In this document: piece after piece, positions 166 to 58,511 of the stretch
Position numbering within the stretch: the stretch's first letter is position 1
How the letters are laid out: every line of letters starts with the position of its first letter
DNA from: Spirochaetia bacterium
Lineage (GTDB): Bacteria > Spirochaetota > Spirochaetia > SZUA-6 > Bin103
Assembly: GCA_965203905.1 (NCBI GenBank)
Contig: CBDBDQ010000005.1
Location: 5,088,001 to 5,152,000 of the forward strand
Length of the DNA stretch: 64,000 nt
Direction of reading: 5' to 3'
Position numbers and translations under genes: made by a program
The notes under the pieces: model-generated
The model's database searches: none
What the model saw: the letters and a program-made list of their open reading frames with translations, nothing else
What the model was told of the DNA's origin: nothing

Positions 166-764
166 ACCTCGTTCGCGCGCACCCACGGGTTTCCTACGGG
201 TCGGCGCTGTTCACAGGGTGGCCGCGCTCGCGAGAGAGTGCACCGTTAGGGGTTCGGCGAATGTGGATGACGCGTCACGAGGACCGCCAACGCAGTGGTC
301 GGTTGGCGGTCACGGTCGGTGACCTCCGAGTGGTTGACAGGGTGCCCGCGTCCATAGCAAGCTCGCATCGCTTGGGTTCCCACGGATCGCTGATGAACCG
401 CCGCGACGACAGTCAGCGCAGTGACCGGTTCCACTGTGACGCGACCGGTGCACCCCCCCCCCCCCCGCAACTCTTTATTAGAAAAAGCATTAACCGCTCA
501 GGCTGATCGCCCCCTACGCGACCCCGTTCACACCGTCGCCTTCACCACCGCCGTAGCTATCGGTGGCGCCGGCTCGGTCCATCGCCGAACCGGCATTAAG
601 ACCGCCCGCACCCTTCCCGTCGACCGCAACGGTGCCGGATCCCCGCCTGCGACCAACTGCGCGCAAAACCCACCACCTGCGTTGGCGGCCATTCAGACTC
701 ACTGCTGTTCAGACCACCGCCACGCGTGGCGTTGTAACGCAGATCCCGACGTAGGTCTAGATTT

Positions 765-978: not shown

Positions 979-989
979 AGGAGGTCAAG

Positions 990-1025
990 ATGATACTCAA
1001 AGAACCGCACGCGCGCGCGGCGTGA
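990..1025 (+). CDS. Putative leader peptide MILKEPHARAA
   Basis: AGGAGG, 5 nt, ATG; stop lies in the 5' arm of a GC hairpin; homologous uORFs before other SBP paralogs. Confidence 0.55.
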   Translation: MILKEPHARAA

Positions 1026-1168
1026 GCCGGGGTGAACCCGTTGAGTCACACGCCGCGCGCGTCCGAGAACTTGACTCAGACTGGCCGCCCGCGTTGCGGG
1101 CCCGAGAGTAGCCAGGGAGCGGCAAGTCGCTCCGCAATGCTCTCAAAATCCAAGCAAGGATACTAACG

Positions 1169-2986
1169 ATGATGAAAATCCTATTTAGAATGACTAGAAT
1201 GACCTTCGCGTTTGCGTTGGTCCTCGTAATGACCGCAACCGGCCTGTGGGCCACTGGCGCAGACGAAGAGGAGGCGGCCGCCGCCGCTGACAAGAAGTAT
1301 GTGACCGACCCCACCACCGGCAAGGTGGTGGCGGCGCCAGAGTATGGCGGGACTTTCACCTTTGCCAATCAGCTCGAGCCTCCGCATTCTGACACCGCGC
1401 TCCATGGGCTTCCGGGACTGGCCGTCAGTGGCGTTGTAGAGAGGCTAGGAATCATGAACTGGGCAATAGATAGGGACGAATTTGCCTTCAGTAGCACGTT
1501 CGTACCTTCATTTACCCTAAGACCGCACCTGGCGGAAAGCTGGGATACCGAGGACGGCCTCACCTATACCTTCCACATCCGCAAGGGAGTTTACTGGCAC
1601 GATAAACCACCGATGAACGGTCGAGAGCTAGATGCCTATGACGTCGAATATAACTATCACCGCTATTTGGGTATGGGCAGCGGCTTCACCGAACGTTCCC
1701 CAGTAGGAGAGTACGTAGCTTTGCCTTTCGAATCGGTAACGGCCACCGACAAGTGGACGGTTGTTATGAAGATGACGGAGCAAACCGTCGCTCCGCTGGC
1801 AACTATGGTTTCGCCCTTCATATCCCCCCCCGAGGTAATCAAGGAACACGGCGACGTTCAGGACTGGAGGAACCTGGTCGGCACCGGGCCCTATATGCTG
1901 ACTGACTGGGTCGATGGCAGCTCTATGACCTATGTCAAGAATCCTGACTACTGGGGCTACGACGAAAAATACCCGGAGAACCGCTTGCCCTACTTTGACG
2001 AGTTACAGCACCTGATTATTAAAGAGGAAGCGACATATCTGGCGGGACTGCGCGCCGGTAAGATTGATTTCCTGGGTTTCACTGCTGGTGTATCTGACCT
2101 AACCGATAACGATACGATCGATAGCCTCCGGCGGACCAACCCTGAAATCGTGCTGGAGCCGTGGTGGGACCGTTCGGAAACGTCTTATGGCCTTGACGCG
2201 ACCAAGCCGCCCTTTGACGACATCAGGGTGCGCAAGGCAATGCAGATGGCACTGGACCTTGAGGGCATTAACAATACCTACTACAAGGGCACTGCAATGT
2301 GGCAGCCTCAGGGTATATTAGGGGAAGCTGTCACCGGGTATTCCACCCCATTTGAAGAGTGGCCCGAAGAGGTCCAGAAGGGCTATATGTATGACCCGGA
2401 AGGGGCGGAAGCGTTGCTTGATGCGGCTGGATATCCCCGCGGCGCCGACGGCACTAGATTCAAGACCGTGTTGAACCATTTCTGGCGGTTTCCTTTAGCC
2501 TATAGTGAATTAGCTGCCGCCTACTTTAAGGCAATTGGCGTTGATGTAGAGATTAACGTAATCGACGAAGCTACGGCTGGCGCTATGAGAGTTGATACCC
2601 ATGCGGAACGTACTTGGGAAGGTATGATGATGACCGTTCTGGGCTGGAACATTAACCCTGTGTGGGGTATGTTCTGGGTTGCTCACTCGACCGGCTCCGG
2701 ACAAAACTACCACGGAATCGGGTACCCTGAGTTGGACGCCCTTATTGACGCCGCCGAAGCCGCTACCTCCTTGGAGGAGCAGCAGAGGCTGCTTAAAGAG
2801 GCAGATATGTACACTATAGAGAACCACTGGCATGTATGGGGTCCTAAAGCTGGAAAGTTCATGTCGATCCAGCCGTGGGTCATAGGTTTTAACGGTGAAA
2901 TCTGGCTTCATTCAGGTCAGGACCGCTTGCTCATCTTCGCCCGCCTCTGGTTTGACCAGGAGCTGAAGGAAGCAATGGGTCATTAG
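1169..2986 (+). CDS. ABC transporter substrate-binding protein, family 5 (locus A)
   Basis: Signal-like N-terminus; PEYGG, LAESW, HDKPP.NGRE, GTGP, PPFDDIRVRKA motifs; followed by two permeases. Confidence 0.93.
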   Translation: MMKILFRMTRMTFAFALVLVMTATGLWATGADEEEAAAAADKKYVTDPTTGKVVAAPEYGGTFTFANQLEPPHSDTALHGLPGLAVSGVVERLGIMNWAIDRDEFAFSSTFVPSFTLRPHLAESWDTEDGLTYTFHIRKGVYWHDKPPMNGRELDAYDVEYNYHRYLGMGSGFTERSPVGEYVALPFESVTATDKWTVVMKMTEQTVAPLATMVSPFISPPEVIKEHGDVQDWRNLVGTGPYMLTDWVDGSSMTYVKNPDYWGYDEKYPENRLPYFDELQHLIIKEEATYLAGLRAGKIDFLGFTAGVSDLTDNDTIDSLRRTNPEIVLEPWWDRSETSYGLDATKPPFDDIRVRKAMQMALDLEGINNTYYKGTAMWQPQGILGEAVTGYSTPFEEWPEEVQKGYMYDPEGAEALLDAAGYPRGADGTRFKTVLNHFWRFPLAYSELAAAYFKAIGVDVEINVIDEATAGAMRVDTHAERTWEGMMMTVLGWNINPVWGMFWVAHSTGSGQNYHGIGYPELDALIDAAEAATSLEEQQRLLKEADMYTIENHWHVWGPKAGKFMSIQPWVIGFNGEIWLHSGQDRLLIFARLWFDQELKEAMGH

Positions 2987-3422: not shown

Positions 3423-4421
3423 ATGAGAGCCTATATCATCAGGCGGTTATTACTCATAATCCCCACCCTGTTTATATTGACCATCCTGGTCTTTCTCTCG
3501 GTACGCTTCATCCCCGGCGATGTCATAGACGTAATGGTTGGAGAGTTGGACTACATGGCTGGGCCCATCGACCGTGAAGCTCTTGAGCGTAGGCTGGGAT
3601 TGGACCAGCCTGTGTACGTGCAGTATGGACGCTGGATAGGAGTGTTGCCGACCCCTGACTGGCTTACCGGTGAGTCACGCTACAACGGTATCCTCCAGGG
3701 CACCCTTGGCGAATCACTGATGGGCGATTGGTCGGTAGAGGACAAGATAATAGGTAGATTGCCGGTAACCATTGAGCTCGGTGTCATAGCAATCGTAATC
3801 GGGCTTCTGATAGCGCTGCCAGTCGGCATCTACTCGGCGATTCGCCAGTATACTGTCGCCGACTACCTGGGGCGCTCCATCGCCATCATCGGTCTGGCAA
3901 CGCCTAACTTCTGGCTGGCCTTGATGGTCATGATCTACCCGGCAATCTGGTGGGGCTGGTCGCTACCGATGCGGCTGATTACTTTCTCCGAAGACCCTCT
4001 GGAGAATCTCGGGATGTTCCTCATTCCAAGCGTGATTCTCGGAACCTACCTTGCCGCAGCCACCATGCGGATGACACGCACTATGATGCTGGAGGTGCTG
4101 AGGCAGGACTATATCAGGACAGCCTGGGCCAAGGGTCTCAAGGAGAGAGTAGTTGTTCTGAGACACGCCGTAAAAAATGCCCTCATCCCGGTAGTTACCC
4201 TGATAGGCCTGCAGTTGCCTGTCCTGGTAGGTGGCGCCGTTATCATGGAGAACATATTTAACCTGCCGGGGCTAGGTCGTCTTCTGCTGAAGGCACTCGA
4301 ACAGAGAGACTACCCGGTGGTCTCCGGAGTAAACCTCTTTTTCGCCATCGTGGTTATGGCGAACAATCTATTGATCGACCTGATTTATCCTTATTTGGAT
4401 CCCAGGGTCCGCCACAGATAA
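3423..4421 (+). CDS. ABC permease DppB/OppB-like
   Basis: MRAYIIRRLL; EVLRQDYIRTAWAKG (EAA loop); LDPR end. Confidence 0.93.
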   Translation: MRAYIIRRLLLIIPTLFILTILVFLSVRFIPGDVIDVMVGELDYMAGPIDREALERRLGLDQPVYVQYGRWIGVLPTPDWLTGESRYNGILQGTLGESLMGDWSVEDKIIGRLPVTIELGVIAIVIGLLIALPVGIYSAIRQYTVADYLGRSIAIIGLATPNFWLALMVMIYPAIWWGWSLPMRLITFSEDPLENLGMFLIPSVILGTYLAAATMRMTRTMMLEVLRQDYIRTAWAKGLKERVVVLRHAVKNALIPVVTLIGLQLPVLVGGAVIMENIFNLPGLGRLLLKALEQRDYPVVSGVNLFFAIVVMANNLLIDLIYPYLDPRVRHR

Positions 4422-4439: not shown

Positions 4440-5366
4440 ATGAGTGATGGCATACCGTCACCAGTAAGTGAGCCAAGGAGACGTAACGCGCTGCCTGATT
4501 TCTTTACCAGGTTGTGGAAGGAGCAACCACTTGGCACTATCTGCGGGATTATGGTATTGATACTGATTTTGGTTGCTATCTTCGCCGATGTTCTGGCTCC
4601 TTATGGCTTTAGTGAAGTACACCTTCCAGACAGATTGCAGAGCTCATCAGCCCGGTATCTCCTGGGTACCGACCACCTGGGGCGAGACTTCTTAAGCCGC
4701 ATTATCTACGGGGCTCGCATTTCGTTGCTTGTCGGCCTGGCGGCGACTAGTGTTAATGTTGTGGTGGCTACCCTGATAGGCGGCATCTCGGGATTCTTTG
4801 GCGGTAAACTGGACTTGGCTGTGCAGAGATTTGTCGATGCCTGGATGGCTTTCCCGGGACTGCTCCTGTTGTTAACCGTAATGTCCATAGTGGGGCGGGG
4901 TGTGCCACAGATAATATTGGTCCTGGGGATATCAGGAGGCATCGGCGGCTCAAGAGTAGTCAGAGGCGCCGTGATTGGGGTCAAAGAGAAAGTCTATTTT
5001 CAGGCGGCGGAGGCAATTGGCAGCTCAAGATGGAGAACACTTATCCGACATGTCCTTCCCAATATTGCGGCGCCCATAATCATCATATTCAGCATCAACA
5101 TCGGGGGGGTGATTATCAGTGCGGCTTCTCTGAGCTTCCTCGGATACGGTCTGCCAGTCCAGATTCCCGACTGGGGTGCTATGCTCAGCCGGGAAGGACG
5201 TCAGTACATGGAGACGGCGCCACGCCTGGCTCTCTGGCCGGGTCTTTGCCTGACTATTGTCGTCTACAGTCTGAACATGTTCGGCGACGCCGTGAGGGAC
5301 CTGCTCGACCCGCGGCTGCGTGGCGGCGGGGGCCGCCTCGGAGCCGATGCCGCCAGGTCGGTCTAA
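4440..5366 (+). CDS. ABC permease DppC/OppC-like
   Basis: LLGTDHLGRD, RHVLPN, LSFLG, GDAVRDLLDPR. Confidence 0.93.
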   Translation: MSDGIPSPVSEPRRRNALPDFFTRLWKEQPLGTICGIMVLILILVAIFADVLAPYGFSEVHLPDRLQSSSARYLLGTDHLGRDFLSRIIYGARISLLVGLAATSVNVVVATLIGGISGFFGGKLDLAVQRFVDAWMAFPGLLLLLTVMSIVGRGVPQIILVLGISGGIGGSRVVRGAVIGVKEKVYFQAAEAIGSSRWRTLIRHVLPNIAAPIIIIFSINIGGVIISAASLSFLGYGLPVQIPDWGAMLSREGRQYMETAPRLALWPGLCLTIVVYSLNMFGDAVRDLLDPRLRGGGGRLGADAARSV

Positions 5367-12430: not shown

Positions 12431-12528
12431 TCCCAACGTCCGCCGAGCGGTGGGCGTTTGCATGATGGGGCGCGCACGCGGATCCCATCTTACGTCAGCC
12501 ATCTGGCAGGGCACCCTGTGCCCCAAGA

Positions 12529-14546
12529 GTCGGAGTAGGAATGACCATCGCTGATCACCCCCTCCACAGATCCCGGCGAGCGGAACTACCGCACCGGGCT
12601 CCTGCCTCAGGTATGACGCCAAGGCGGTACAAGGGATAGGGATGGCACACGCGGGGCGGTGGCAACCAGTGGCCGATCAGACGGCTCAGCCGCTCCCAGG
12701 TAAGCCGGGGCTTCTGACTGCGCCGCCGCATCGACCGATACCAGAGCCGACCTACCCGCAGGCGGAACAGGCGCAGTGCGCGGGAGTTCGTGGGCACCCC
12801 GTAGTACCGCAGGTGCCCACCCACAACCGAGCGCAGCCAGCTTCCCACCTCCGGGACCGGATCGTGCAGGCGCCGCCGGAGCTCGGTCTTCACCTGCCCC
12901 AGCTTGGCCTGCAACCGCTCCCGCATCGTCTGCCTGAGCACCGTAAACCGTCCGTCACTCCACTTCGTCCCGCAGATGTGCGTGAACCCGAGGAAGTCGA
13001 AGGTCTCCGGCTTCCCCTGACCTCGACGCCTGCGGTTCTCGGCCGCGAACGGCCCGAACTCGATCAAGCGCGTCTTGTCAGGATCCAGCTCCAAGGCGAA
13101 CTTGCTGAACCTCTCGGTCAGCTCCGCCCGGAACCGCTCGGCATCCGAGCGGTTCCGGAATCCGCCGACGATGTCATCCGCGTAGCGCACGACGATCACC
13201 TCGCCACGCGCCTGCGTCTGCCGCCAGCGCCGGACCCACAGGTCGAACACGTAGTGCAGGTAGATGTTGGCAAGAAGCGGCGAAGCGCTGCCTCCCTGCG
13301 GCGTCCCCTGCTCGCTGCGTGTCCGCGTCCCGTCTTCCAGCACGCCGGCGTTCAGCCATTTCTGGATGAGCCGCACGACGCGCCGATCCCCGATCCGATG
13401 CTCGGCGAACTTCACCAGCCAGCCGTGGTCGATGGCGTCAAAGAACCCACGGATGTCCACGTCGAGCACCCAGTTCACCTTCCGTGTCAGCAGGCCCACA
13501 TAGAGCGCGTCCAACGCATTGTGCTGGCTGCGCCCCGGCCGGAACCCGTAACTGAACCCGAGAAAGTCGGTCTCGTAGATGGTGTTCAGCACCTCGACTG
13601 TCGCACGCTGGACGATCTTGTCTTCCAGCGCCGTCACGCCGAGCGGTCGTTGCCGCCCGTCGCTCTTGGGGATGAACACCCTCCGCACCGGCTTCGCCCG
13701 GTACGCTCCTCGCTGCAGCCGTCCACAGAGGTCCAGGAGGTTGCCCTCCAGGTCCCTGCCGTACTGCCGCCACGTCACCCGGTCCACCCCCGGCGCGGCT
13801 TCCCGCCTGAGGCTGAAGTACGCCTCCCGGAGCATCGCAGGGTTGTCGACGTGGTGCATGAGCGCGGTGAACCGCAGCGTCCTATCCCGTCGCGCTGCTT
13901 GACGTATCCGCTCCAGCGCACTGAGCGCGCCCTCCCGGCGCAGTGTCCGGGGCGCGTTTTGCTGGCGCAGATTCCCTTTGGCCAGGCCCCTTTCCTCCAC
14001 CCGCTCCGCGGCCCGGTTGCTGCCGGCCGGCGTGACCGTAGGTTCTCCCTTGGCTGTATCCGGCGTTTCCGCCTGCGTGCCCGTGTAGGGTTCACCATAG
14101 CCGCGCCACCTGCGGCAGCCCCCGTCCTTGTTCGCGGGTTTCCCAGGTACTATGGGCCTGTCCGACTTCCCAGCTCCGTTCATCGTCGGCGTACGTCCTT
14201 GGACTTCCCGACACGGCCTGCGGCGCCATCCGCCACAGGCGAAGCTGGGATCTCCCGGCTCCCGCGCAAGGTGTTTCCGTACGTGCCCGGGGTCTGTGAC
14301 CGCGCAGGGTCCCGTGGCGCCTCGCGATATCGGCGCCCCGAGTGTGGCCTTCCGCATCCTCCTACGGCGTCGGCACCCCAAAGTAATTCCTTTCGCGGCT
14401 CGATACCCGGCCCGCACGTACCCCTGTCAACGCTTCACCCCCGCTCTTGCGAGCGACGGCGCATGACTCAGGGCCGCCGTGGGTCGCTAGCCCTTCGACG
14501 TATGACTCTTCCATTCACAACACCTTGCCGGTTTTTACCGGCGCAC
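12529..14546 (-). mobile_element. Group II intron (~2018 nt), RT-encoding, no En domain (bacterial class E-like)
   Basis: 5' GTGCGCC; domain V GAGCCCGGTGCGGTAGTTCCGCTCGCCGGGATC; domain VI ending CCTACTCCGAC; EBS1 AGGAGG (14358-14363) complementary to exon CCTCCT. Confidence 0.93.
12555..14183 (-). CDS. ltrA: Group II intron reverse transcriptase/maturase
   Basis: FSYGFRPGRSQH, GTPQGG.ASPLLANIYLH, RYADD, FDFLGFTH, C-terminal HPYP; start codon inferred. Confidence 0.92.
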   Translation of the reverse strand: MNGAGKSDRPIVPGKPANKDGGCRRWRGYGEPYTGTQAETPDTAKGEPTVTPAGSNRAAERVEERGLAKGNLRQQNAPRTLRREGALSALERIRQAARRDRTLRFTALMHHVDNPAMLREAYFSLRREAAPGVDRVTWRQYGRDLEGNLLDLCGRLQRGAYRAKPVRRVFIPKSDGRQRPLGVTALEDKIVQRATVEVLNTIYETDFLGFSYGFRPGRSQHNALDALYVGLLTRKVNWVLDVDIRGFFDAIDHGWLVKFAEHRIGDRRVVRLIQKWLNAGVLEDGTRTRSEQGTPQGGSASPLLANIYLHYVFDLWVRRWRQTQARGEVIVVRYADDIVGGFRNRSDAERFRAELTERFSKFALELDPDKTRLIEFGPFAAENRRRRGQGKPETFDFLGFTHICGTKWSDGRFTVLRQTMRERLQAKLGQVKTELRRRLHDPVPEVGSWLRSVVGGHLRYYGVPTNSRALRLFRLRVGRLWYRSMRRRSQKPRLTWERLSRLIGHWLPPPRVCHPYPLYRLGVIPEAGARCGSSARRDLWRG

Positions 14547-14558
14547 AGGAGGTGCGAA

Positions 14559-14594
14559 ATGATACTCAAAGAACCGCAACCCCGCGCGGCGTGA
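14559..14594 (+). CDS. Putative leader peptide MILKEPQPRAA
   Basis: AGGAGG (14547-14552), 6 nt, ATG; same length and stop position as 990-1025. Confidence 0.55.
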   Translation: MILKEPQPRAA

Positions 14595-14753
14595 GCCCGG
14601 CTAAACCCGGTGAGTCACACGCCGCGCGCTTCACAATTCGACTCAGACTGGCCGTCCGCGTTGGCGGGCGCGCCCGCGTTGCGGGCGTCAGAGTAGCCAG
14701 GGAGCGGCAAGTCGCTCCGCAATACTCTCGAGAATCAAGATCCGGAGTTACGC

Positions 14754-16544
14754 ATGAACTTTGCAAAAATTAGAATGACCTTCGCGTTTGCGTTGGTCCT
14801 CGTAATGACCGCAACCGGCCTCTGGGCCGCTGGCGCAGAAGAGGAGCCGGCAGCCGCTGCCGACAAGAAGTATGTGACCGACCCCTCCACCGGCAAGGTG
14901 GTGGTGGCGCCAGAGTATGGCGGGACAATAACCTTCGCCCGAAAAGACGAGCCGGCGGGTCCTGACACCGTGATCAGTGGTATGTGGGCGCAAGCCTACG
15001 TCGCTGGCGTTAATGAGAAGCTCGCCTGGCCGGACTGGGCAACGCCTAGGGACGAATTTGACTTCGTGTATCACAACGTTCCAACTAACACGATAGGGAG
15101 TCTGGCGGAAAGCTGGTCGCAGCCCGACCCACTGACGTATATCGTCAAAGTCCGCCAGGGCGTTTACTGGCATGATAAGCCACCGATGAACGGTCGGGAG
15201 CTGATTGCCGACGATATCGTATATAACTATCACCGTATTACGGGTACGGGCAGCGGTTTCACCGAACGTAGCGAATGGGCCCAGGCACTCAAATCTGTGC
15301 CACTCGAATCGGTAACGGCCACCGACAAATGGACGGTTGTTTTTAAGCTGAAGTCGCTACACCTCGATGCGCTGGCTGCTATCCTCGACGGCACGATCGC
15401 TTGGATATATCCCCCCGAGGTAATCAAGGAACACGGGGACGTTACGGATTGGAGGAACCTGGTCGGCACCGGACCCATGATGCTGACTGACTTGGTCGAA
15501 GGCGTCTCTATTACCTGGGACAAGAATCCTGACTACTGGGGATACGACGAGAAATACCCGGAGAACCGCCTGCCCTATATTGACCGGCTGAGGGCCCTGT
15601 TTATGCCAGAAGACCCAACGTATCTGGCGGCACTGCGCACGGGTAGGATTGATTACATAGGTCCGATCAGCGGCAACGCAATCATGAGTCAAGACCAGTT
15701 AGAGAGCCTCAAGAGGACCAACCCCGAACTCGTGATATATCCGTATATCGATCGGTCAGATAATGCTATTGGTATGAACACGCAGAGGCCGCCCTTTGAC
15801 GACATCAGGGTGCGCAAGGCAATGCAGATGGCACTAAACCTCGAGGAAATTAACGACGGCTTGTATGGAGGTTTTGCAGATGTGACACCTCAGGGGGTGA
15901 TAAACCGGTCTTTAACATGTTGTGTCACCCAATTTGAAGAGTGGCCCGAAGAGGTCAAGAAAGGCTTTATGTATGACCCGGCAGGGGCCGAGAAGCTTCT
16001 TGATGAGGCGGGGTATCCGCGCGGGGCCGACGGCATTAGATTTAAGACCGAGTTGATGCACCTCGTGTTTAGACCTTTGAGCTATGTAGAATTACTCGCT
16101 TCATACTGGAATAAGATTGGCATTGATGTAGAGATTGATTCACCACCAGTACCTTCCTTTGCCTCTAGAAGAGGTGAGAGGGATTTCGAAATGATCAGTG
16201 CGGAAGCGGCCATGCGGTGGAACCCATTGGTATTAGAATCTCGCTATCTACCGACCACATCATATAACAGCGCCAATGTCAACGACCCGGTTTATACAGC
16301 CATGCATGAAGCCGCCGCAGCCGCTACCACCATCGAGGAGTATAACAGTATAATTAAAGAGTTGGATCAGTATGGGATAGAGAAGTTCTGGGAGATATGG
16401 GGTGGTATGGCCCCACAGTATGTCGCGATCCAGCCGTGGCTCGTCGGTTTTAACGGTGAAACGATGTTGGGAACGGGTCAATATACCACCATCTTCAGCC
16501 GCCTCTGGGTTGATAGTGAGCTGAAGGAAGCAATGGGTCATTAG
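14754..16544 (+). CDS. ABC substrate-binding protein, family 5 (locus B)
   Basis: Paralog of 1169-2986 with the same motifs. Confidence 0.93.
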   Translation: MNFAKIRMTFAFALVLVMTATGLWAAGAEEEPAAAADKKYVTDPSTGKVVVAPEYGGTITFARKDEPAGPDTVISGMWAQAYVAGVNEKLAWPDWATPRDEFDFVYHNVPTNTIGSLAESWSQPDPLTYIVKVRQGVYWHDKPPMNGRELIADDIVYNYHRITGTGSGFTERSEWAQALKSVPLESVTATDKWTVVFKLKSLHLDALAAILDGTIAWIYPPEVIKEHGDVTDWRNLVGTGPMMLTDLVEGVSITWDKNPDYWGYDEKYPENRLPYIDRLRALFMPEDPTYLAALRTGRIDYIGPISGNAIMSQDQLESLKRTNPELVIYPYIDRSDNAIGMNTQRPPFDDIRVRKAMQMALNLEEINDGLYGGFADVTPQGVINRSLTCCVTQFEEWPEEVKKGFMYDPAGAEKLLDEAGYPRGADGIRFKTELMHLVFRPLSYVELLASYWNKIGIDVEIDSPPVPSFASRRGERDFEMISAEAAMRWNPLVLESRYLPTTSYNSANVNDPVYTAMHEAAAAATTIEEYNSIIKELDQYGIEKFWEIWGGMAPQYVAIQPWLVGFNGETMLGTGQYTTIFSRLWVDSELKEAMGH

Positions 16545-36815: not shown

Positions 36816-38633
36816 TCAGAATCCCATTTCTCGCTTCAGATCCTGGTCGATCCAGAGGCGGGCGAGGACGGGATGATACTGCAGGTCTCCCAGCGAGTAT
36901 TCACCGTTGTAGCCCTTGACCCACGGATTGTTCGCCTGAAACTGTGGCGCCAGAGGACCCCAAATCTGATTGTGTTGCTCGATCACGGACATATCATATG
37001 CTTTCGATGCCTCCAACTGCTCCTCCAAGGTCGTGGCGGCGTAATAGGCATCAGAGGCCGCGTCCAGCACGGAGGTGTCGATTGCGCACGGGTCGCTACA
37101 GGCCAAGTACTCCCGGCTAAATGGGTTGTCACTGCGATGAGCGTCCAGCCAGAAGCCCGTATGGGCCATGTCGCCAGTGGCCATCTCATACGTGAGGTCT
37201 GCTTTCGCAGCAACCCAAGTCGCCGTGTCAGCAATCTTGGTCGTTACCTCAACGCCAATATCAGACCAGTAGCCGGCAGCGATTTCTGTATAGCCCAAAT
37301 CAATGACGTCTCGGTGCAAATACTCTGCCGTGAATCGGATTCCGTCCGCGCCGCGCGGATAGCCAGCCTCATCAAGGAGTTCCTCGGCACTCTCCGGATC
37401 GTACCGGTAGTATCGTTTGAGCTCGTCTGGCCACTCTTCAAATGGTGTGTAACCCCCCTTGATGCCAATCCACCGAGGGTTTTCCCAGTCTGCAAAACCG
37501 CCAAAGTAGGTATCGTTAATCGTCTCGAGATCCAGTGCCATCTGCAGTGCATGGCGCACCCTGATGTCGTCAAATGGCGCGTTGCGAATGTTCAGACCAA
37601 AGACCTGAAACGCCCGCTGGTAATAACTGTGCACCTCGATTTCGGGGTTGGTCCTTTGGAGGCTCCTTATCACGTCCATGTTTCCTATGTCAACGACGCC
37701 GGCGTGCTGAATGATATCAACCTTGCCCGTACGCATTGCCGATATACGTGTTGCTTCGTCTGCCATAAGGAGAGCCCTTATCTCGTCAACATAAGGCAAG
37801 CGGTTCTCCGGGTATTTCTCGTCGTAGTCCCAGAAGTCAGGATTCTTGGTAAAGGTTTTTGAGACGCCCTCGACATAGTCAGTCAGTATAAGGGGCCCGG
37901 TGCCGACCACGTTCTTCCAATCCTCATAGTTGCCGTATTGCTCGATTACGTCAGGGGGTAGTATCCAATTCTGAGCTTCGTTGAGGATCGCCCATAGCGC
38001 ACCGAGGGATAGCCTTGTCATCTTCATGACGACCGTGTATTTGTCGGTGGCCTCTATCGATTCCCATGGCAGGTTGAACGTGGTGCCAGGCCTAAGGGGA
38101 GGTTCGGTGAAGTCACCCTGAGCGGTACTGCGCTGATAGGTATAGACGACATCATCGGCAGTTAGCTCCCGACCATTTACTAAGCGACTGGCCTCACTGT
38201 CTGGATTAAGAGCGTAGTGAACGCCCTGACGGATGTGAAAAACGTAGGTCAGCGGGTCGGGCGTCTCCCAGCTTTCCGCCAGATTCCCTGTCAAGAAGCG
38301 CGCAGGGACGTAATTGTCTGTCCAGTCAAATTCCTCCCTATCCAGTGCCCAGTCCCCGAGCGCGAGCTTCTCATTGACACCGTCTATGAGCCAGCCCGCT
38401 TCGAAGCCAACAGCAAAGGGGTCTACATTATTGCTTACTCTGTTATAGGGATAGGTTAATGTCCCGCCGTACTCCGGCGCGGTCACCATCTTGCCGGTGG
38501 CGGGGTCCATCACCATTTCCTTCTCCATCGCCGCTGCCGGCTCCTCTTCTGCGCCGGTCGCCCAAAGGCCGGTTGCCGTCAGGACGAGCCCGAACAGTAC
38601 CGCCAGCAATTTTCGCGAGATTGCGTAGTGCAT
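36816..38633 (-). CDS. ABC substrate-binding protein, family 5 (locus C)
   Basis: Paralog motifs; AGGAG SD before MHYAIS. Confidence 0.93.
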   Translation of the reverse strand: MHYAISRKLLAVLFGLVLTATGLWATGAEEEPAAAMEKEMVMDPATGKMVTAPEYGGTLTYPYNRVSNNVDPFAVGFEAGWLIDGVNEKLALGDWALDREEFDWTDNYVPARFLTGNLAESWETPDPLTYVFHIRQGVHYALNPDSEASRLVNGRELTADDVVYTYQRSTAQGDFTEPPLRPGTTFNLPWESIEATDKYTVVMKMTRLSLGALWAILNEAQNWILPPDVIEQYGNYEDWKNVVGTGPLILTDYVEGVSKTFTKNPDFWDYDEKYPENRLPYVDEIRALLMADEATRISAMRTGKVDIIQHAGVVDIGNMDVIRSLQRTNPEIEVHSYYQRAFQVFGLNIRNAPFDDIRVRHALQMALDLETINDTYFGGFADWENPRWIGIKGGYTPFEEWPDELKRYYRYDPESAEELLDEAGYPRGADGIRFTAEYLHRDVIDLGYTEIAAGYWSDIGVEVTTKIADTATWVAAKADLTYEMATGDMAHTGFWLDAHRSDNPFSREYLACSDPCAIDTSVLDAASDAYYAATTLEEQLEASKAYDMSVIEQHNQIWGPLAPQFQANNPWVKGYNGEYSLGDLQYHPVLARLWIDQDLKREMGF

Positions 38634-39200
38634 CTTTGACTCCTGATACTCGTGATATTTGAGAGTGCCGATGCCACTGGCCATCCCTCGCCCACTCTCG
38701 CGGTACACCTGGTATCGCCGGTGCCCGGGAAAACGAGGGGGGACAGCCTCGAGCTACATCTACATCCGGCACCTCCTTGAACGCGTGCGCGGACCTGAGC
38801 CCGGAGCGTCGCGGGGGGCGGTGGTCCGCGACCGTTCGGTCGGCGCTGCAGCGCGGGTGAGTGACCGGCAACGCCGGCGGCCCGCCAGGCAGGCGGTCGG
38901 AGTAGCGGTGGTCCAGGAGAAGTGGCGCGCGGGGCGCGCTGCGCGTTCAGCCTGAGCGCTTACGCTTGGGGGGGGGGTAGGCGAGGATAGGACGCGCCGG
39001 TGGCGTTGCCGCTAGGAGCGTGTCGGCTGCGCCGACGAGGTCCGAGCGGATCGGCGGAATAGACCGCCCCGGCGCCTCGGGCGTCGGTTTATGGGGCGCC
39101 AACCGGTGGCGGCGCTGAGTAGTGTCATCAGGCATCGTTCGCATCCGTTCGTTACCCGAGACACGACCCTCGGACACCTGGGCAAACACGTCAAGCGGCA
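38634..39200 (-). promoter_or_regulatory. Diverged upstream module of locus C (stem 38661-38699, SD 38772-38777 then ATGTAGATGTAG, C10 38968-38977)
   Basis: Shared blocks GGGGCGGTGGTC, CCGGCAACGCCGGCGG, TCAGCCTGAGCG, AACCGGT...GCGCTGA on the + strand. Confidence 0.6.
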
Positions 39201-42857: not shown

Positions 42858-42946
42858 TGGCGGTGAGGGTGGGATTCGAACCCACGGTACCCATAAGGCA
42901 CAACGGTTTTCGAGACCGCCCCGTCCGACCGCTCCGGCATCTCACC
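42858..42946 (-). tRNA. tRNA-Ser(CGA)
   Basis: GGTGAGATGCCGGAGCGG...GCGGT-CTCGAAA-ACCGT, long variable arm, GGTTCGAATCC, encoded CCA. Confidence 0.95.
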
Positions 42947-50727: not shown

Positions 50728-52533
50728 CTAATAGCCCATTTCTCCCTTCAGCTCCTGGTCAATCCAGAGGCGGGCCAACGTGGCATTGCTGTTACCGTGT
50801 CCCATGTGGGAATCACCGTCAAAGCCTATGACCCACGGCTGGGTGACGTTGAAATGCGGAGGCACAGGACTGATGAGGTGCCAATGCTGTGAGATGGCGT
50901 ACATTTCTGCCTCCCTGGATATCCTTTTCAGCTCCTCCACGGAGGAAGCGTCGCGCGCGGCGTCAACCAGGGCGTCGTAGTGCGGGTCACTGATGCCGCC
51001 GCGATTATGGTATTGATTGGGGAGACCGCGCGTGTAACCAAAACCTAGCGCAGCCAACGGCGCGTATGGTGTGGCCGAAATGAAAGCCGCAAATCCTTCA
51101 GTATCACGCTCGCTGAAGCGGCGGAAGAATTCAGGCCATTCATAGAGTACGGCCTTTACCTCGACGCCGATCTCGCGCAAATACGCCGTGACAATTTCTG
51201 CATAGGTTACGTCGCTGCCCATGAGATCCAAACCGGTCTGGAATCGAATGCCGTCCGCGCCGCGTGGGTACCCCGCCTCGTCAAGGAGCCTTTCGGCCCC
51301 TTCCGGGTCATAGGTATAGCCCTTCTTGACCGCTTCGGGCCACTCATCAAACGGAACGGTGTACCCGGCCTGCCAGTTAGCGATCATCCCCTGTGGAGTA
51401 CTATTGGCAAGACCCTTATAGTAGGTATTGTTGATCGTCTCGAGGTCGACTGCCATCTGCATCGCCTTGCGCACGTTGACGTCGTCAAAGGGCGGCTTGT
51501 CTACTGCCAGGGTATACGTTTCGTTCGCCCTGAAGTAGAAAGGATTCAACCTGAGCTCGGGATTGGTCTGCCGCAGACTGTCGGCCGCGTCCACGGTTCG
51601 TACCAAAGCACCGACATTGAGGCCGTTGTAATCCACCTTGCCCGTGCGCACTGCCGACGCAAACGTCGCTACCTCCGGCATGTACAGGCCTACCAACTGA
51701 TCAACGTAGGGCAGGCGGTTCTCGGGGTACTTTTCGTCGTAGCCCCAGTAGTCGGGATTCTTGGCAAAGGTGATTGAGCTGCTCTCGACCCAATCGGTCA
51801 TCATGAAAGGACCGGTCCCGACCAGGTTCCTCCAGTCGGTAACGTCGCCGTGTTGCTTGATGACCTCGGGGGCGTTCATGAAGGCATAGATGTCGTCGAG
51901 CAGTACCACCAGCGCATCGAGGGGTGGCTCCCTCAACTTGAAGACGACCGTATATTCGTCGGTGGCCGTTATCGATTCGAATTGCATCCCGGCGAATCGT
52001 GCCGCTTGGGCGGGAGGTTCGGTGAAGCCGCTGCCCGTACCGCTATAGCGGTGGAAGTTGAACACGATATCCTCGGCAACCAGCTCGCGCCCGTTCATAG
52101 GGGGTTTGTCGTGCCAGCGAACGCTCTCGCGGATGTGGAAGATGACGGTGCTGGGATCAGGCTGTTCCCAGCTTTCCGCCAGAGCCCCGGCATAGTGTTC
52201 TTCGAGCAGAAATTCATTTGCAAGGTCATTCACGCTTCTATCTATTGCCCAGTTCGCGTGGCCTAGTTTCTCTATGACGCCACTGACCGCTTTTTATGCC
52301 CCGTACCCCGCGATCGACATGTCAGCATTCGGAGGTTCGTACTGGTAGGCGAAGGTCAATGTCCCGCCATACTCGGGCGCGGTCACCACCTTGCCGTTGC
52401 TGGGGTCGGTGACATATTTCTTGTCGGCAGCGGCTGCCGGCTGCTCTTCTTCGCCGGCGGCCCAGAGGCCGGTCGCGGTGAGGACAAGGACCACCGTAAC
52501 CGCGAAGGTCCTGGTAATTTGTGCAATATACAT
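50728..52533 (-). pseudogene. ABC substrate-binding protein, family 5 (locus D), with one in-frame TAA at 52294-52296
   Basis: ...AGYGA*KAVSGVIEKLG... continues in the same frame into 50728-52233. Confidence 0.85.
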
Positions 52534-53095
52534 ACGCAACTCCGTATGTTGGTTTTCTTGAGAGTATTGCGGACCGGCTTGCCGCTCCCTGGCTACTCTC
52601 GCGCCCGCAACGCAGGCGGCCAGACCGAGTCAGATTCGTGAAGCGCGCGGCGTGTGACTCCCGAGGCTCACGCCGCGCGCGTGCGGTTCTTTGAGAATCA
52701 TCTTGCGCTCCACAACGCCACGGGGCGGTGGTCGGCGGAGCACCGAAGGGTAATTGACCCGGCAACGCCGGCGGTCGGTTCTGCGACGGTGAGTCGGGGG
52801 GCGGGGATCCAGGACCGTTGCGGTGGTCAGTGAACGAACGCGAACTGAGCCGGTACCGCCCGGAGCCGGCGTTACGCCGCTGCTGAAGGCGAAGGCGCCC
52901 GCGGGGCGATCAGCCCAAGCGGTTAGTGATCTATAGGTAGTATCAAGAGTGCGGGGGGGGACGGGAGTGGATCGGGCGCACCGGCTGCGTGATCGCTAAC
53001 CGGTCACTGCGCTGACTGTCTTCGTGGCGCTTCACCCGCATCGGGTCGATGTTCCGGACGTTGTATCCTCCCACGCGGCCGGCATACTGTCAAAC
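52534..53095 (-). promoter_or_regulatory. Upstream module of locus D, intron-free (TTGACA 53088-53093, motif 52998-53014, C8 52953-52960, uORF 52630-52701)
   Basis: Homologous to 12160-12425 joined to 14555-14735. Confidence 0.75.
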
Positions 53096-56137: not shown

Positions 56138-57973
56138 TCAGAAGCCCATTTTCGCCTTCAGGTCCTGGTCGATCCAGACCCGCACCAGAATCTCGTTGTT
56201 GCTCATATCCGTGAGGAACGTCTCGCCGTTCCAGCCCTTGACCCAGGGGTTGGCCAGCTGGAACGCCGGCGCCTTGTGGCCGTAGACCTGGAAGTGCTGG
56301 CGCATGATGTAATCGTCGAACTCTCGCATGATCGGGATCCGCGCTTCCTGGCTGGTCGCAGCCTGGAACGCCTCGTAGAGCCGACTCATGGTCGCGTCCT
56401 TGAGCCCGCCGGTGTATTCGCCCGCCTGGTTCGCCTGCCCTTCGCCCTGGTAGTTGTGGACGTAGCCGTAGTAGCTCATGATGTGCGCGGGACTCAGATC
56501 CCAGCCGGAGTCGCCGGTCGTCATCTCGTAGAGCCCGCGGGCGCGGCGATCGACCCAGGCGCCGGTGTCCATCACCGTGATCTCCACCTCCACGCCGATC
56601 GCCTTCCAGTAGCCGGCCACGATCTCGACCCATCCGAGGTCGATCACGTCGCGGTGGTCGTAGGTGACCTTGAACCGCACCCCGTCCGCGCCGCGCGCGT
56701 AGCCGGCCTCGTCGAGCAAGCGCTCGGCCTCCTGCGGATGGTAGGAGTACTCAGCCTGCAGATCCGCGGACCGCTCCGCGAACGGAGTGTGCATCTCGCC
56801 GAGCGCGGCGCCGACCCAGCCCTGCACCGTCGGGTAGGCATACCCGCCGTAGTAGCTCTCGTTGATGGCATCGCGGTCGATCGCCATGTTCATCGCCTTG
56901 CGCACGCGGATGTCGTCGAACGGCGGCCGGCGGATGTTCAGGCCGGACACCTGCAGTGCGCGACTGTAGAACGGGACTGCCTGCATGTCGGGGTTGGTCT
57001 TCAGGATGGCATCCACCGCTTCGACGGTGGCCAGCGCGATGCCGCCGCCGACAGTAAGCATGTCTACCTGGCCGGTGCGCAGCGCGGCAGTGTAGGTCGC
57101 CTCTTCCTTCATATGGAGAGCCACCAGCTCATCGACGTAGGGCAGCCGGTTGTCCGGGTACTTCTCGTCGAAGCCCCAGTAGTCGGGATTGCGCACCCAC
57201 TGCTTGCGTACCTCGGGTTGGAAGTCAGCCAGCATGAACGGCCCGGTGCCGACCACGTTCCGCCAATCGGAGTAGTTGCCGTGCTGCTCGATGACCTCCG
57301 GTGGCAGGATCCAGACGCCGACCTCGGTGAGCACCTGGTTCTGCAAGTCCAGGCGCGGCTCGGTCAGCTTGAACTCGACCGTGTACCGGTCGGTGGCCTC
57401 GATGGATTCCCACGGAAAGTTGCGCAGGGCGTAGGTATACTCCGGCTTCCAGTCGAGCAGGCCGCCGATGCGGCGGTAGGTCCAGGCGACGTCTTCGGCG
57501 GTCAGCTCCCGTCCGTTCACCGGCGGCTTGTCGTGCCAGTGAACGCCCTGCCGGACCTTGACGATGAGCGTCCGGGGATCGGGATTCGACCAGCTCTCTG
57601 CCAGCCACCCGGTGAGGTGCTGGGGCGGCGTGTACCAAAAGGTCAAGGGGTACTCGTCCCGCGGCGTGGCCCAGTTGACGTATGCCAGCTTCTCGTTCAC
57701 CCCCATGATCTGAAAGCCGGCCCAGTGTCCGCCGATCGATGGATCCTGGTCCAGGAGCTCGTTCCTGGATGCGATGGTGAGGGTGCCGCCGTACTCGGGT
57801 GCGGTCACCATCTTGCCGGTGGACGGGTCCATCACCATCTCCTTCTCCATCGCCGCGGCCGGCTCCTCTTCTGCGGCCGGGCTCGCCCAGATGCCGGTGG
57901 CGATGAGGGCGAACACGAGCACAAACCCGAATGTGGGTGCGATTCTCAGAGTGTTCATAACCAATCTCTCCAT
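56138..57973 (-). CDS. ABC substrate-binding protein, family 5 (locus E)
   Basis: Paralog motifs; start may be 57958. Confidence 0.93.
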   Translation of the reverse strand: MERLVMNTLRIAPTFGFVLVFALIATGIWASPAAEEEPAAAMEKEMVMDPSTGKMVTAPEYGGTLTIASRNELLDQDPSIGGHWAGFQIMGVNEKLAYVNWATPRDEYPLTFWYTPPQHLTGWLAESWSNPDPRTLIVKVRQGVHWHDKPPVNGRELTAEDVAWTYRRIGGLLDWKPEYTYALRNFPWESIEATDRYTVEFKLTEPRLDLQNQVLTEVGVWILPPEVIEQHGNYSDWRNVVGTGPFMLADFQPEVRKQWVRNPDYWGFDEKYPDNRLPYVDELVALHMKEEATYTAALRTGQVDMLTVGGGIALATVEAVDAILKTNPDMQAVPFYSRALQVSGLNIRRPPFDDIRVRKAMNMAIDRDAINESYYGGYAYPTVQGWVGAALGEMHTPFAERSADLQAEYSYHPQEAERLLDEAGYARGADGVRFKVTYDHRDVIDLGWVEIVAGYWKAIGVEVEITVMDTGAWVDRRARGLYEMTTGDSGWDLSPAHIMSYYGYVHNYQGEGQANQAGEYTGGLKDATMSRLYEAFQAATSQEARIPIMREFDDYIMRQHFQVYGHKAPAFQLANPWVKGWNGETFLTDMSNNEILVRVWIDQDLKAKMGF

Positions 57974-58511
57974 TCATCTTCTGATTTGAGAGTGCTTCGG
58001 TGGGGAGTTGCCGGCCCGGCCCACTCTCGCGCCTGCAACGCAGGCGACCAGGCAGGGAGGGCAACCTCAGGTGGTCACACGCGCGGCATGAGCGTCATGC
58101 ACTCGGGCCGCGCGCGTGGTGCCATTCATTGAGTATCAGCTTGCACCTCCCTGTTGCGCGGATTCCGGGACTCGACGCCGAGAACGCGGCCGCGAGGCAC
58201 GCGCAGGGTGGCGGCTGTCCCGGTACTCGACGGAGTGATCTGGTATTGGACGGAGTGCTGCCGTAAGCGCAGGGCGGGCGTAATCGGTGGTGCGGTGCAC
58301 TCTGGCCCGGTTGGCCGGCGCGGTTAGTTACTTCTCGGATGAATCGAGAGTTAGATGTTATTCGCGTCCCGGGGGAGGGGGGGGGATGGATCGGGCGCAC
58401 CGGCTGCGTGATCGGTAACCGGTCACTGCGCTGACTGTCTTCGTGGCGTTTCACCCGCATCGGTTGATGCTCCGGACGTTGTATCCTCCCACGCGGCCGG
58501 CATACTGTCAA
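57974..58511 (-). promoter_or_regulatory. Upstream module of locus E (TTGACA 58506-58511, motif 58417-58433, C9TC5 58371-58385, uORF 58095-58139)
   Basis: 58388-58513 nearly identical to 52969-53095. Confidence 0.72.

Follow-up and report, generated by a model that had tools for sequence, protein, structure and literature searches.

The window, the whole 64,000-nt stretch of Spirochaetia bacterium DNA that was analysed, contains five copies (A to E) of a compact leader element of about 190 nt, and the genes 3' of these leaders encode SBP_bac_5 solute-binding proteins (SBPs). Leader A, on the plus strand, opens with the sequence AGGAGG (979-984), the SD of a mini-ORF at 990-1025 (MILKEPHARAA-stop), and is followed by SBP A, a 605-aa protein (1169-2986, plus strand), with two ABC permease genes further 3' at 3423-4421 and 4440-5366. 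Leader B (14547-14753, plus strand) has its mini-ORF at 14559-14594 (MILKEPQPRAA-stop) and a duplicated P3 hairpin, and SBP B starts at 14754. The three other copies are on the minus strand. Leader D (52534-52712) has a mini-ORF at 52701-52630 that is lengthened by a 2-nt deletion, with the ATG of SBP D at 52533, and leader E (57974-58150), of what we call the E subtype, has a CUG start at 58139 and a TGA stop at 58097-58095, with the ATG of SBP E at 57973. Leaders A, B, D, and E are of one type (type I). Leader C (38634-38777; SBP C ATG at 38633) scores 90.4 bits with a covariance model, R2, of a second type (type II); its SD at 38777-38772 is followed by a start-stop ATG TAG at 38765-38760, within the sequence ATG TAG ATG TAG at 38765-38754. 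The mini-ORF start lies 179, 195, 132, 168, and 166 nt from the SBP ATG in leaders A, B, C, D, and E, respectively. All five leaders are present as a sequence-only reading of this DNA had described them. That reading had also grouped copy C with the others; it is indeed related to them, but it belongs to the second leader type and its conserved feature is the start-stop mini-ORF.

Two other features of the window were recorded. In SBP D, codon 80 counted from the ATG at 52533 is an in-frame TAA (52296-52294, minus strand), past which similarity to SBP A extends, and SBP D is either a pseudogene or the product of an assembly error. A tRNA-Ser (CGA) gene at 42858-42946 (minus strand) is the only tRNA gene in the window.

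Copy number, distribution, and exchange of the leader

The genome from which the window derives (7.99 Mb, 66% G+C, 98.7% complete) contains 40 leader matches at E ≤ 1e-3 in an iterated nhmmer search, 30 of them full length (E between 1e-28 and 1e-49), which places the family far beyond chance. In 33 of 40 blastn clusters, an SBP paralog starts no more than 600 nt downstream on the same strand. A tblastn search identified 50 close paralogs of SBP A at ≥250 bits in the same genome. A full type I leader is found at 27 of the 49 close paralogs whose match reaches the N terminus, and 13 of the remaining 22, copy C among them, have the related type II leader. No riboswitch or cis-regulatory family of Rfam 15 reached its gathering score in the window, and at E ≤ 10 leaders A and C gave chance-level Rfam matches alone. 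The linkage of the leader clusters to SBP genes, together with the absence of an Rfam match, bears out the earlier proposal that this is a new family of leaders associated with an expanded set of SBPs. A search of the literature on sponge spirochaete SBPs, uORFs, Rho, and start-stop sites, supplements excluded, yielded no description of the leader.

A covariance model built from 51 type I leaders (model R1, alignment A2) finds the leader in 8 of the 92 genomes of the order, all from the same genus. There are at least 30 matches in each of five genomes (the genome under study and four others of the genus) and 5, 2, and 1 matches in three more. R1 found no type I leader in three further genomes of the genus, in the 13 of the sister genus, or in the remaining 68 of the order, the last two groups making 81 in all. 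With model R2, the genome under study yields 14 type II copies, two relatives yield 39 or more each, and four others have 26, 18, 8, and 5. Six of the 13 sister-genus genomes each have one weak R2 match as well, and the five alignments shown retain the P4 helix and its loop; one of these matches, at locus L126, lies before an SBP_bac_5 gene without a mini-ORF. A strict two-motif pattern searched against one genome per species in 185,579 species returned three records, all named 'MAG: Spirochaetia bacterium'. RNA sequencing runs containing parts of the region are mostly labelled sponge metagenome, and a metagenome scan for the type II core gave a match on a single contig. The leader is a real, lineage-restricted, multi-copy family with a new design that combines a mini-ORF with a pseudoknot.

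The SBP_bac_5 subfamily itself is enormously and patchily expanded. In addition to the 50 close paralogs in the genome under study, there are 117 in genome G001, 26 in G007, and one each in G009 and G010, both of which are leaderless; sister-genus genome G019 has none at E ≤ 1e-60. Leaders and SBPs do not appear to have descended together: leader and SBP distances are not significantly correlated (Mantel r = 0.096, reached by 469 of 2000 permutations), and co-descent was rejected. On an SBP tree used for clearly typed leader copies only, the leader types are scattered, and the closest paralog of SBP A has a type II leader. At one locus (L002), leader A and a copy from another species share 92% identity, compared with 66% in the adjacent coding sequence. 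From the Mantel result, the scattered types, and this difference in identity, it follows that leaders have been exchanged or homogenised among paralogs, and part of their similarity may come from recombination or recent spread rather than from constraint alone. Plain conservation of the leader is consequently a weaker argument for function, while the codon-phase signal and the compensatory base changes described below are unaffected.

The leader is also a target of group II introns, which home antisense at its SD. A truncated 5' piece of such an intron occupies 762-978 on the minus strand, and its GUGCG 5' end directly adjoins the leader A SD, which is on the other strand. A full intron at 12440-14546 on the minus strand, with an approximate 3' end, abuts the SD of leader B by its 5' end in the same way and contains a reverse-transcriptase ORF (12555-14417) of 620 aa in which RVT_1 was found. 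The D1-D4 model RF02005 matches these introns in the window at 181.7 and 124.6 bits, above its cut-off. Six group II intron matches occur in the genome, those beyond the window being at C5:7566090, 3405300, 4845114, and 1918683. For four of the six, the 5' end abuts a leader SD on the opposite strand (A, B, 7566051, and a leader remnant at ~3405620); of the other two, one is sense-oriented inside a truncated leader and one lies elsewhere. The sequence GGCGCAC is found directly 5' of the SD in six further copies, which were not counted as intron ends. Read on the intron strand, a hairpin and T-rich run resembling a terminator precede the insertion point by about 27 nt.

Mini-ORF and RNA fold

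For the mini-ORF counts, 131 full-length type I instances were collected from the genome under study and from loci of seven relatives, leaving out partial and locus-end matches, and removal of exact duplicates gave 78 distinct leaders. The consensus mini-ORF is M-I-L-K-E-P-x-A-R-A-A-stop. Starts are ATG in 56 leaders, GTG in 11, TTG in 3, CTG in 4, GTA in 2, and AGG in 2, so that 70 of 78 have a canonical ATG, GTG, or TTG; the four copies with a CUG start are of the E subtype, and four further copies are without a start codon. The ORF has 11 codons in 57 leaders, 14 in 7, 6 in 3, and other lengths in 11. ILKEP follows the start in 61 of the 78, and a GGAG, GAGG, or AGGA motif is found 4-16 nt before the start in 57. 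Both start codon and frame are accordingly conserved in the larger set. The conditions under which the sequence-only reading was to be refuted, loss of start and frame among them, for the most part did not hold.

Substitutions in these leaders were counted by parsimony on a FastTree phylogeny, itself built from the same short alignment of leader copies that recombine, and across codons 2-6 of the 78 leaders they number 8, 10, and 35 at codon positions 1, 2, and 3. In the real frame, 30 of the changes are synonymous and 23 non-synonymous, compared with 4:49 and 8:45 in the other two frames. Given that 10 of the 45 possible single changes in codons 2-6 are synonymous, a binomial test gives p = 6e-8 in the real frame, as against 0.93 in each control frame. 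The observed third-position sum is reached by 14 of 3003 choices of five columns. Codon 7 is variable at all three positions, and the codons after it, which double as an arm of helix P1, were left out of the coding judgement. A synonymous excess confined to the real frame makes the mini-ORF of the type I leader look translated, as judged from this substitution pattern; the mini-ORF of leader A carries this codon-phase signature as one of the family.

A form that may be intermediate between the two leader types occurs elsewhere in the same genome at C5:4259240-4259266 (plus strand), where an SD and the ORF MILRTAHD-stop precede a distant SBP paralog with 35% identity to SBP A. Its peptide begins like that of type I and ends like that of type II.

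The RNA fold of the type I leader begins within the mini-ORF. P1 (1013-1060 in leader A, plus strand, as are all coordinates of this fold) is a 12-bp GC stem in which 1013-1024 pairs with 1049-1060, and it contains a small, variable apical hairpin, P1b, at 1030-1039. The leader A stop codon at 1023-1025 tops the 5' arm of this stem, as the sequence-only reading had it. P1 is paired in 96.1% of cells, changes on both sides in three pairs, and was seen in all 14 folds inspected. The 5' arm of P2, UGAGUCA (1042-1048), lies inside the P1 loop, and its 3' arm, UGACUCA (1072-1078), downstream of P1. P2 is paired in 80-86% of cells, with both sides changed in three pairs and compensatory variants such as CGAGUCA with UGACUCG and GCAGUC with GACUGC. 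Next come the 5' arm of PX, CUGGC (1081-1085; PX is 91.7% paired in type I), the P3 hairpin GCCCGC-GUU-GCGGGC (1087-1101; 98% paired), and the 5' arm of P4, GAGAGUA (1104-1110). Because the 3' arm of PX, GCCAG (1111-1115), directly follows the 5' arm of P4, the two helices cross as a pseudoknot. P4 encloses the P5 hairpin (1116-1133; 86.7% paired, two pairs changed on both sides) and closes with its 3' arm UGCUCUC (1138-1144), 12 nt before the SD of SBP A; the usual type I pairing is GAGAGUA with UACUCUC. The two hairpins noted earlier thus exist, but they form only part of a larger fold with P1, P2, and the pseudoknot core.

Across the 51-leader alignment, standard pairs make up 92.2% of cells, and shifting the partners by one to three columns lowers this to 28-55%. 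Both sides change in twelve pairs, a number reached by none of 500 shuffles. Frequent alternation of U-G and C-G in P3 and P5 indicates that the folded strand is the sense strand. No covariation of PX was seen among type I leaders; what supports this helix is its covariation in type II, together with the exchange of helix sequence from one type to the other.

The core of PX, P3, P4, and P5 is common to both leader types, and type II leaders have neither P1 nor P2. The type II core runs from the PX 5' arm through a hairpin, the P4 5' arm, the PX 3' arm, and a loop bearing a conserved GGCA to the P4 3' arm, with a different PX sequence (CCCUCGC with GCGAGGG) and a longer P4. In leader C (minus strand), PX is formed by 38739-38734 with 38690-38685 and P4 by 38699-38693 with 38667-38661. 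The 13 type II copies from the genome under study have 95.6% of PX and 87.6% of P4 paired. In 37 type II copies aligned to a model holding P4 alone, PX is 93.8% paired, with one position occupied by CG in 22 copies, GC in 4, and UA in 4, and P4 is 85.9% paired, with AU/GC, GC/AU, and UA/CG exchanges. There are 36 cells changed on both sides in this set, and none of 500 shuffles reaches its covariation score. Some unpaired nucleotides of the core, for example GGCA after the PX 3' arm, are nearly invariant, and P4 ends 5-22 nt before the SD of the SBP gene.

At their 5' ends, type II leaders have a strong SD followed by a tiny ORF of 8 codons (MQPKTGYD, MAPKTGYD, or MPPKTGYD, with CAA/CAG and GGA/GGT variants), 3 codons (MSK, MSM, MQK, or MQN), or a start-stop, in which the SD, start, and stop alone are kept.

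Several further sequence features were observed near these structures. The mini-ORF start (993-1005, AUACUCAAAGAA) and the P4 3' arm with its tail (1137-1149, AUACUCUCAAGAA in most copies) nearly repeat one another. Each is complementary to GAGAGUA, the P4 5' arm, and two related copies have an identical A-to-U change in both. In many copies, as at 52552-52531 in the window (minus strand), a small hairpin holds the SBP start codon in its stem and, mostly, the SD in its loop; its form is CAUACG...CGUAUG, with variants that preserve pairing (such as UAUGG...CCAUG and CAUAGG...CCUAUG). Runs of 6-10 C bases occur ~200-300 nt upstream of several type II mini-ORFs (L110:1-9, L111:11-20, L117:1-8, and the upstream parts of L120 and L145); in L122 the run is CCCC interrupted by T and then CCC. 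These runs are mostly followed by an A+T-rich stretch and vary in length between copies, and could be a variable homopolymer near the promoter.

Transcription and alternative explanations

Contigs from four RNA libraries of three studies cross the SD from upstream into the mini-ORF, a result for which DNA carry-over is possible and which derives from related strains or paralogs. Some of these contigs represent the intron-less form, with 761 joined to 990 and 29-47 letters on the shorter side, and others span 979 from 892, 913, or 923. Contig depth and uncovered stretches were left out as evidence, since multi-copy sequence makes both unreliable. The contigs give a weak hint that transcripts include the mini-ORF. 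A further conserved element is found 5' of the SD in both leader types, at about 600-761 (plus strand), at 52715-52850 (minus strand), and in many other copies. It contains a CCGGC-GUU-GCCGG hairpin and a GACCACCGCC...GCGUGGCGUUGU stretch. Identity in this element between leader A and another species' copy is 82%, so that the functional leader or promoter region may reach over 100 nt further in the 5' direction.

The crossing contigs also bear on the idea that GATACT in the apparent mini-ORF is a -10 box, with transcription starting just downstream and the SD and ATG serving as promoter spacer. The hexamer resembles TATAAT and sits in an A+T-rich region of a 66% G+C genome. Against this reading, no promoter-like site was found there and no -35 is conserved 16-18 nt upstream; conservation of the block starts at the SD; the hexamer has no invariant A at its second base, which is G in several copies (GGTACT); substitutions follow codon phase; and TTGACx-17-TAxxxT promoters are recognisable further upstream in several copies. 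With the RNA contigs weakly opposing it as well, we rejected GATACT as a -10 box and consider this explanation highly improbable. It is similarly hard to credit that the element acts on the opposite strand, either as an antisense terminator or as a mere homing site for group II introns. This explanation would account for the sole terminator-like pattern in leaders A and D being antisense, formed by part of P1 followed by a T-rich run, and for the insertion of four of the six intron copies at this site. However, on the other strand the frequent U-G pairs of P3 and P5 would become A-C mismatches, the position and orientation of the element before SBP genes are fixed, the coding signature is on the sense strand, and most copies are without an intron.

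Two other explanations deserve more weight. The pseudoknot core could be the real sensor, a new riboswitch or a protein or sRNA site beside the SBP ribosome-binding site (RBS), with the mini-ORF an accessory that, for example, aids co-transcriptional folding or shields the long leader from Rho. Of the parts of the leader, the core alone is common to both types, its single weak matches in 6 of 13 sister-genus genomes include the one before an SBP_bac_5 gene at L126 that lacks a mini-ORF, its unpaired GGCA is nearly invariant, and both PX and P4 covary. Yet the core matches no known RNA family and no ligand or partner can be named for it; one signal would have to serve over 100 SBP paralogs whose specificities presumably differ; and the coding constraint on ILKEP would need further explanation. 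We judge the core-as-sensor explanation unlikely, if still a serious candidate. Much the same weight goes to the possibility that the leader is a constitutive cassette for high expression and stability, containing no switch and copied among SBP paralogs by recombination during their recent expansion. In such a cassette the strong SD and mini-ORF, together with stable hairpins at the 5' end, would protect a heavily used mRNA. The scatter of leader types on the SBP tree and the uncorrelated Mantel test fit such copying, leader copy number tracks SBP expansion from the 117 paralogs of G001 and the 26 of G007 to the single ones of leaderless G009 and G010, the 5' UTR of the lone SBP in G009 is short and plain, and the start-stop subtype preserves only an SD, start, and stop. 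A plain stabiliser, however, needs no selection on the ILKEP peptide, and a covarying, conserved pseudoknot exceeds the needs of a stabilising hairpin. RNase J is the 5'-to-3' exonuclease that is blocked by SD-type stabilisers in Bacillus, and it was not found in this 98.7% complete genome; a 5' stabiliser directed against RNase J was rejected on these grounds.

Possible mechanism and known systems

In the attenuators of trp, his, leu, and pheA, a leader ORF with an SD runs at its 3' end into the first arm of a stable hairpin. The type I leader resembles them in that the 3' end of the mini-ORF overlaps the first P1 arm; the leader ORF of type II does not overlap the first arm of its structure. 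Unlike those attenuators, the spirochaete leader has no runs of regulatory codons, no U-tract terminator in the sense direction, and no clear 1:2, 2:3, and 3:4 alternatives. On their sense strands, leaders A and D showed no terminator-like site, and no clustered regulatory codons occur in MILKEPxARAA, MxPKTGYD, or the ORFs of 1-3 codons. Together with the absence from type II of the stop-in-hairpin arrangement, these results speak against ribosome-mediated attenuation in the classical sense. The core idea of the sequence-only reading therefore survives in part: there is support for a translated leader ORF linked to RNA structure, but not for the attenuator mechanism.

Start-stop sites have been reported from ribosome profiling in E. 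coli. Upstream ribosome-binding sites and tiny uORFs are described in Sinorhizobium meliloti (PMC13285730). Type II leaders are like such minimal ORFs in retaining an SD, start, and stop within 1-3 codons, which suggests an effect of the ribosome rather than of the peptide. They differ in that the spirochaete mini-ORF lies 130-200 nt from the main start and belongs to a multi-copy structured family. Because of this distance, it is unlikely that the mini-ORF directly occludes or couples with the SBP start. In M. tuberculosis, metE and ppe2 have a B12 riboswitch and a translated uORF whose translation modulates the downstream gene (PMC11260477). The likeness is the presence of structured RNA and a short translated ORF in one leader. 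The metE and ppe2 aptamer is of a known class with a known ligand (PMC11260477), whereas the spirochaete core has no Rfam match and its mini-ORF is 5' of the core.

The closest parallel is with the toiL uORF of topAI-yjhQ in E. coli, for which it is proposed that ribosome position on the uORF remodels RNA near the main RBS, with Rho secondary (PMC12121999). Both systems have a short translated uORF in a long structured 5' region without an intrinsic terminator. In contrast to toiL, a single locus (PMC12121999), the spirochaete leader exists in dozens to more than 100 copies per genome before importer SBPs. The spirochaete leader also has a pseudoknot core, several mini-ORF classes including a start-stop, and no sequence relation to toiL, and it is known from sequence alone.

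In a simple switch, the 3' arm of P4 would act as an anti-SD toward the SD of the SBP gene; this model was rejected, as such pairing occurs in 10 of 25 folds alone. The SBP start codon lies in a local hairpin stem in 6 of 25 folds. Refolding with the mini-ORF masked as ribosome-bound gave no consistent alternative structure, with P2 forming in 7 of 24 cases and the others pairing GC repeats with one another. The genome encodes rho (700 bits) and RNase Y, and RNase E/G, like RNase J, was not found in it. Because the anti-SD model fails, masked refolding is inconsistent, and Rho and RNase Y are encoded, we favour by analogy a toiL-like scheme for the spirochaete leader.

This scheme would have two modules, a strong SD with a translated mini-ORF and the pseudoknot of PX, P3, P4, and P5. 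The last codons and stop of the mini-ORF form the 5' arm of P1, and a ribosome on the mini-ORF and P1 are therefore mutually exclusive. Ribosome occupancy of the mini-ORF could set how the P1/P2 region folds, the state of P1 and P2 could in turn influence folding of the adjacent pseudoknot, and pseudoknot folding would then determine SBP output through access to the SBP RBS. Rho-dependent termination or RNase Y decay might provide secondary outputs, and an intrinsic terminator would not be involved. We infer the coupling of the modules, the output, and the signal, and give an even chance to the reading in which a structured leader is coupled to the ribosome and works through RBS access, Rho, or mRNA stability. 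No sensor based on one peptide can account for every leader, since the peptide varies among subtypes and the start-stop subtype has none. The bolder proposal is distinctly doubtful: that a conserved nascent peptide (MILKEP...) or a start-stop gates a new pseudoknotted RNA, as a master switch for 50 to more than 100 paralogous nutrient importers of sponge symbionts, whose whole scavenging repertoire would be tied to translation status or to one host-derived signal bound by the pseudoknot.

A new, well-supported pseudoknotted RNA joins the catalogue of bacterial leaders. The natural series of mini-ORFs with 11, 8, 3, and 1 codons before the same core offers a comparison for the role of a leader ORF beyond ribosome loading. 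If the reading of a ribosome-coupled leader is true, one cis-acting design would govern most of a very large importer family in uncultured sponge symbionts, and would provide a handle on how these symbionts control nutrient scavenging.
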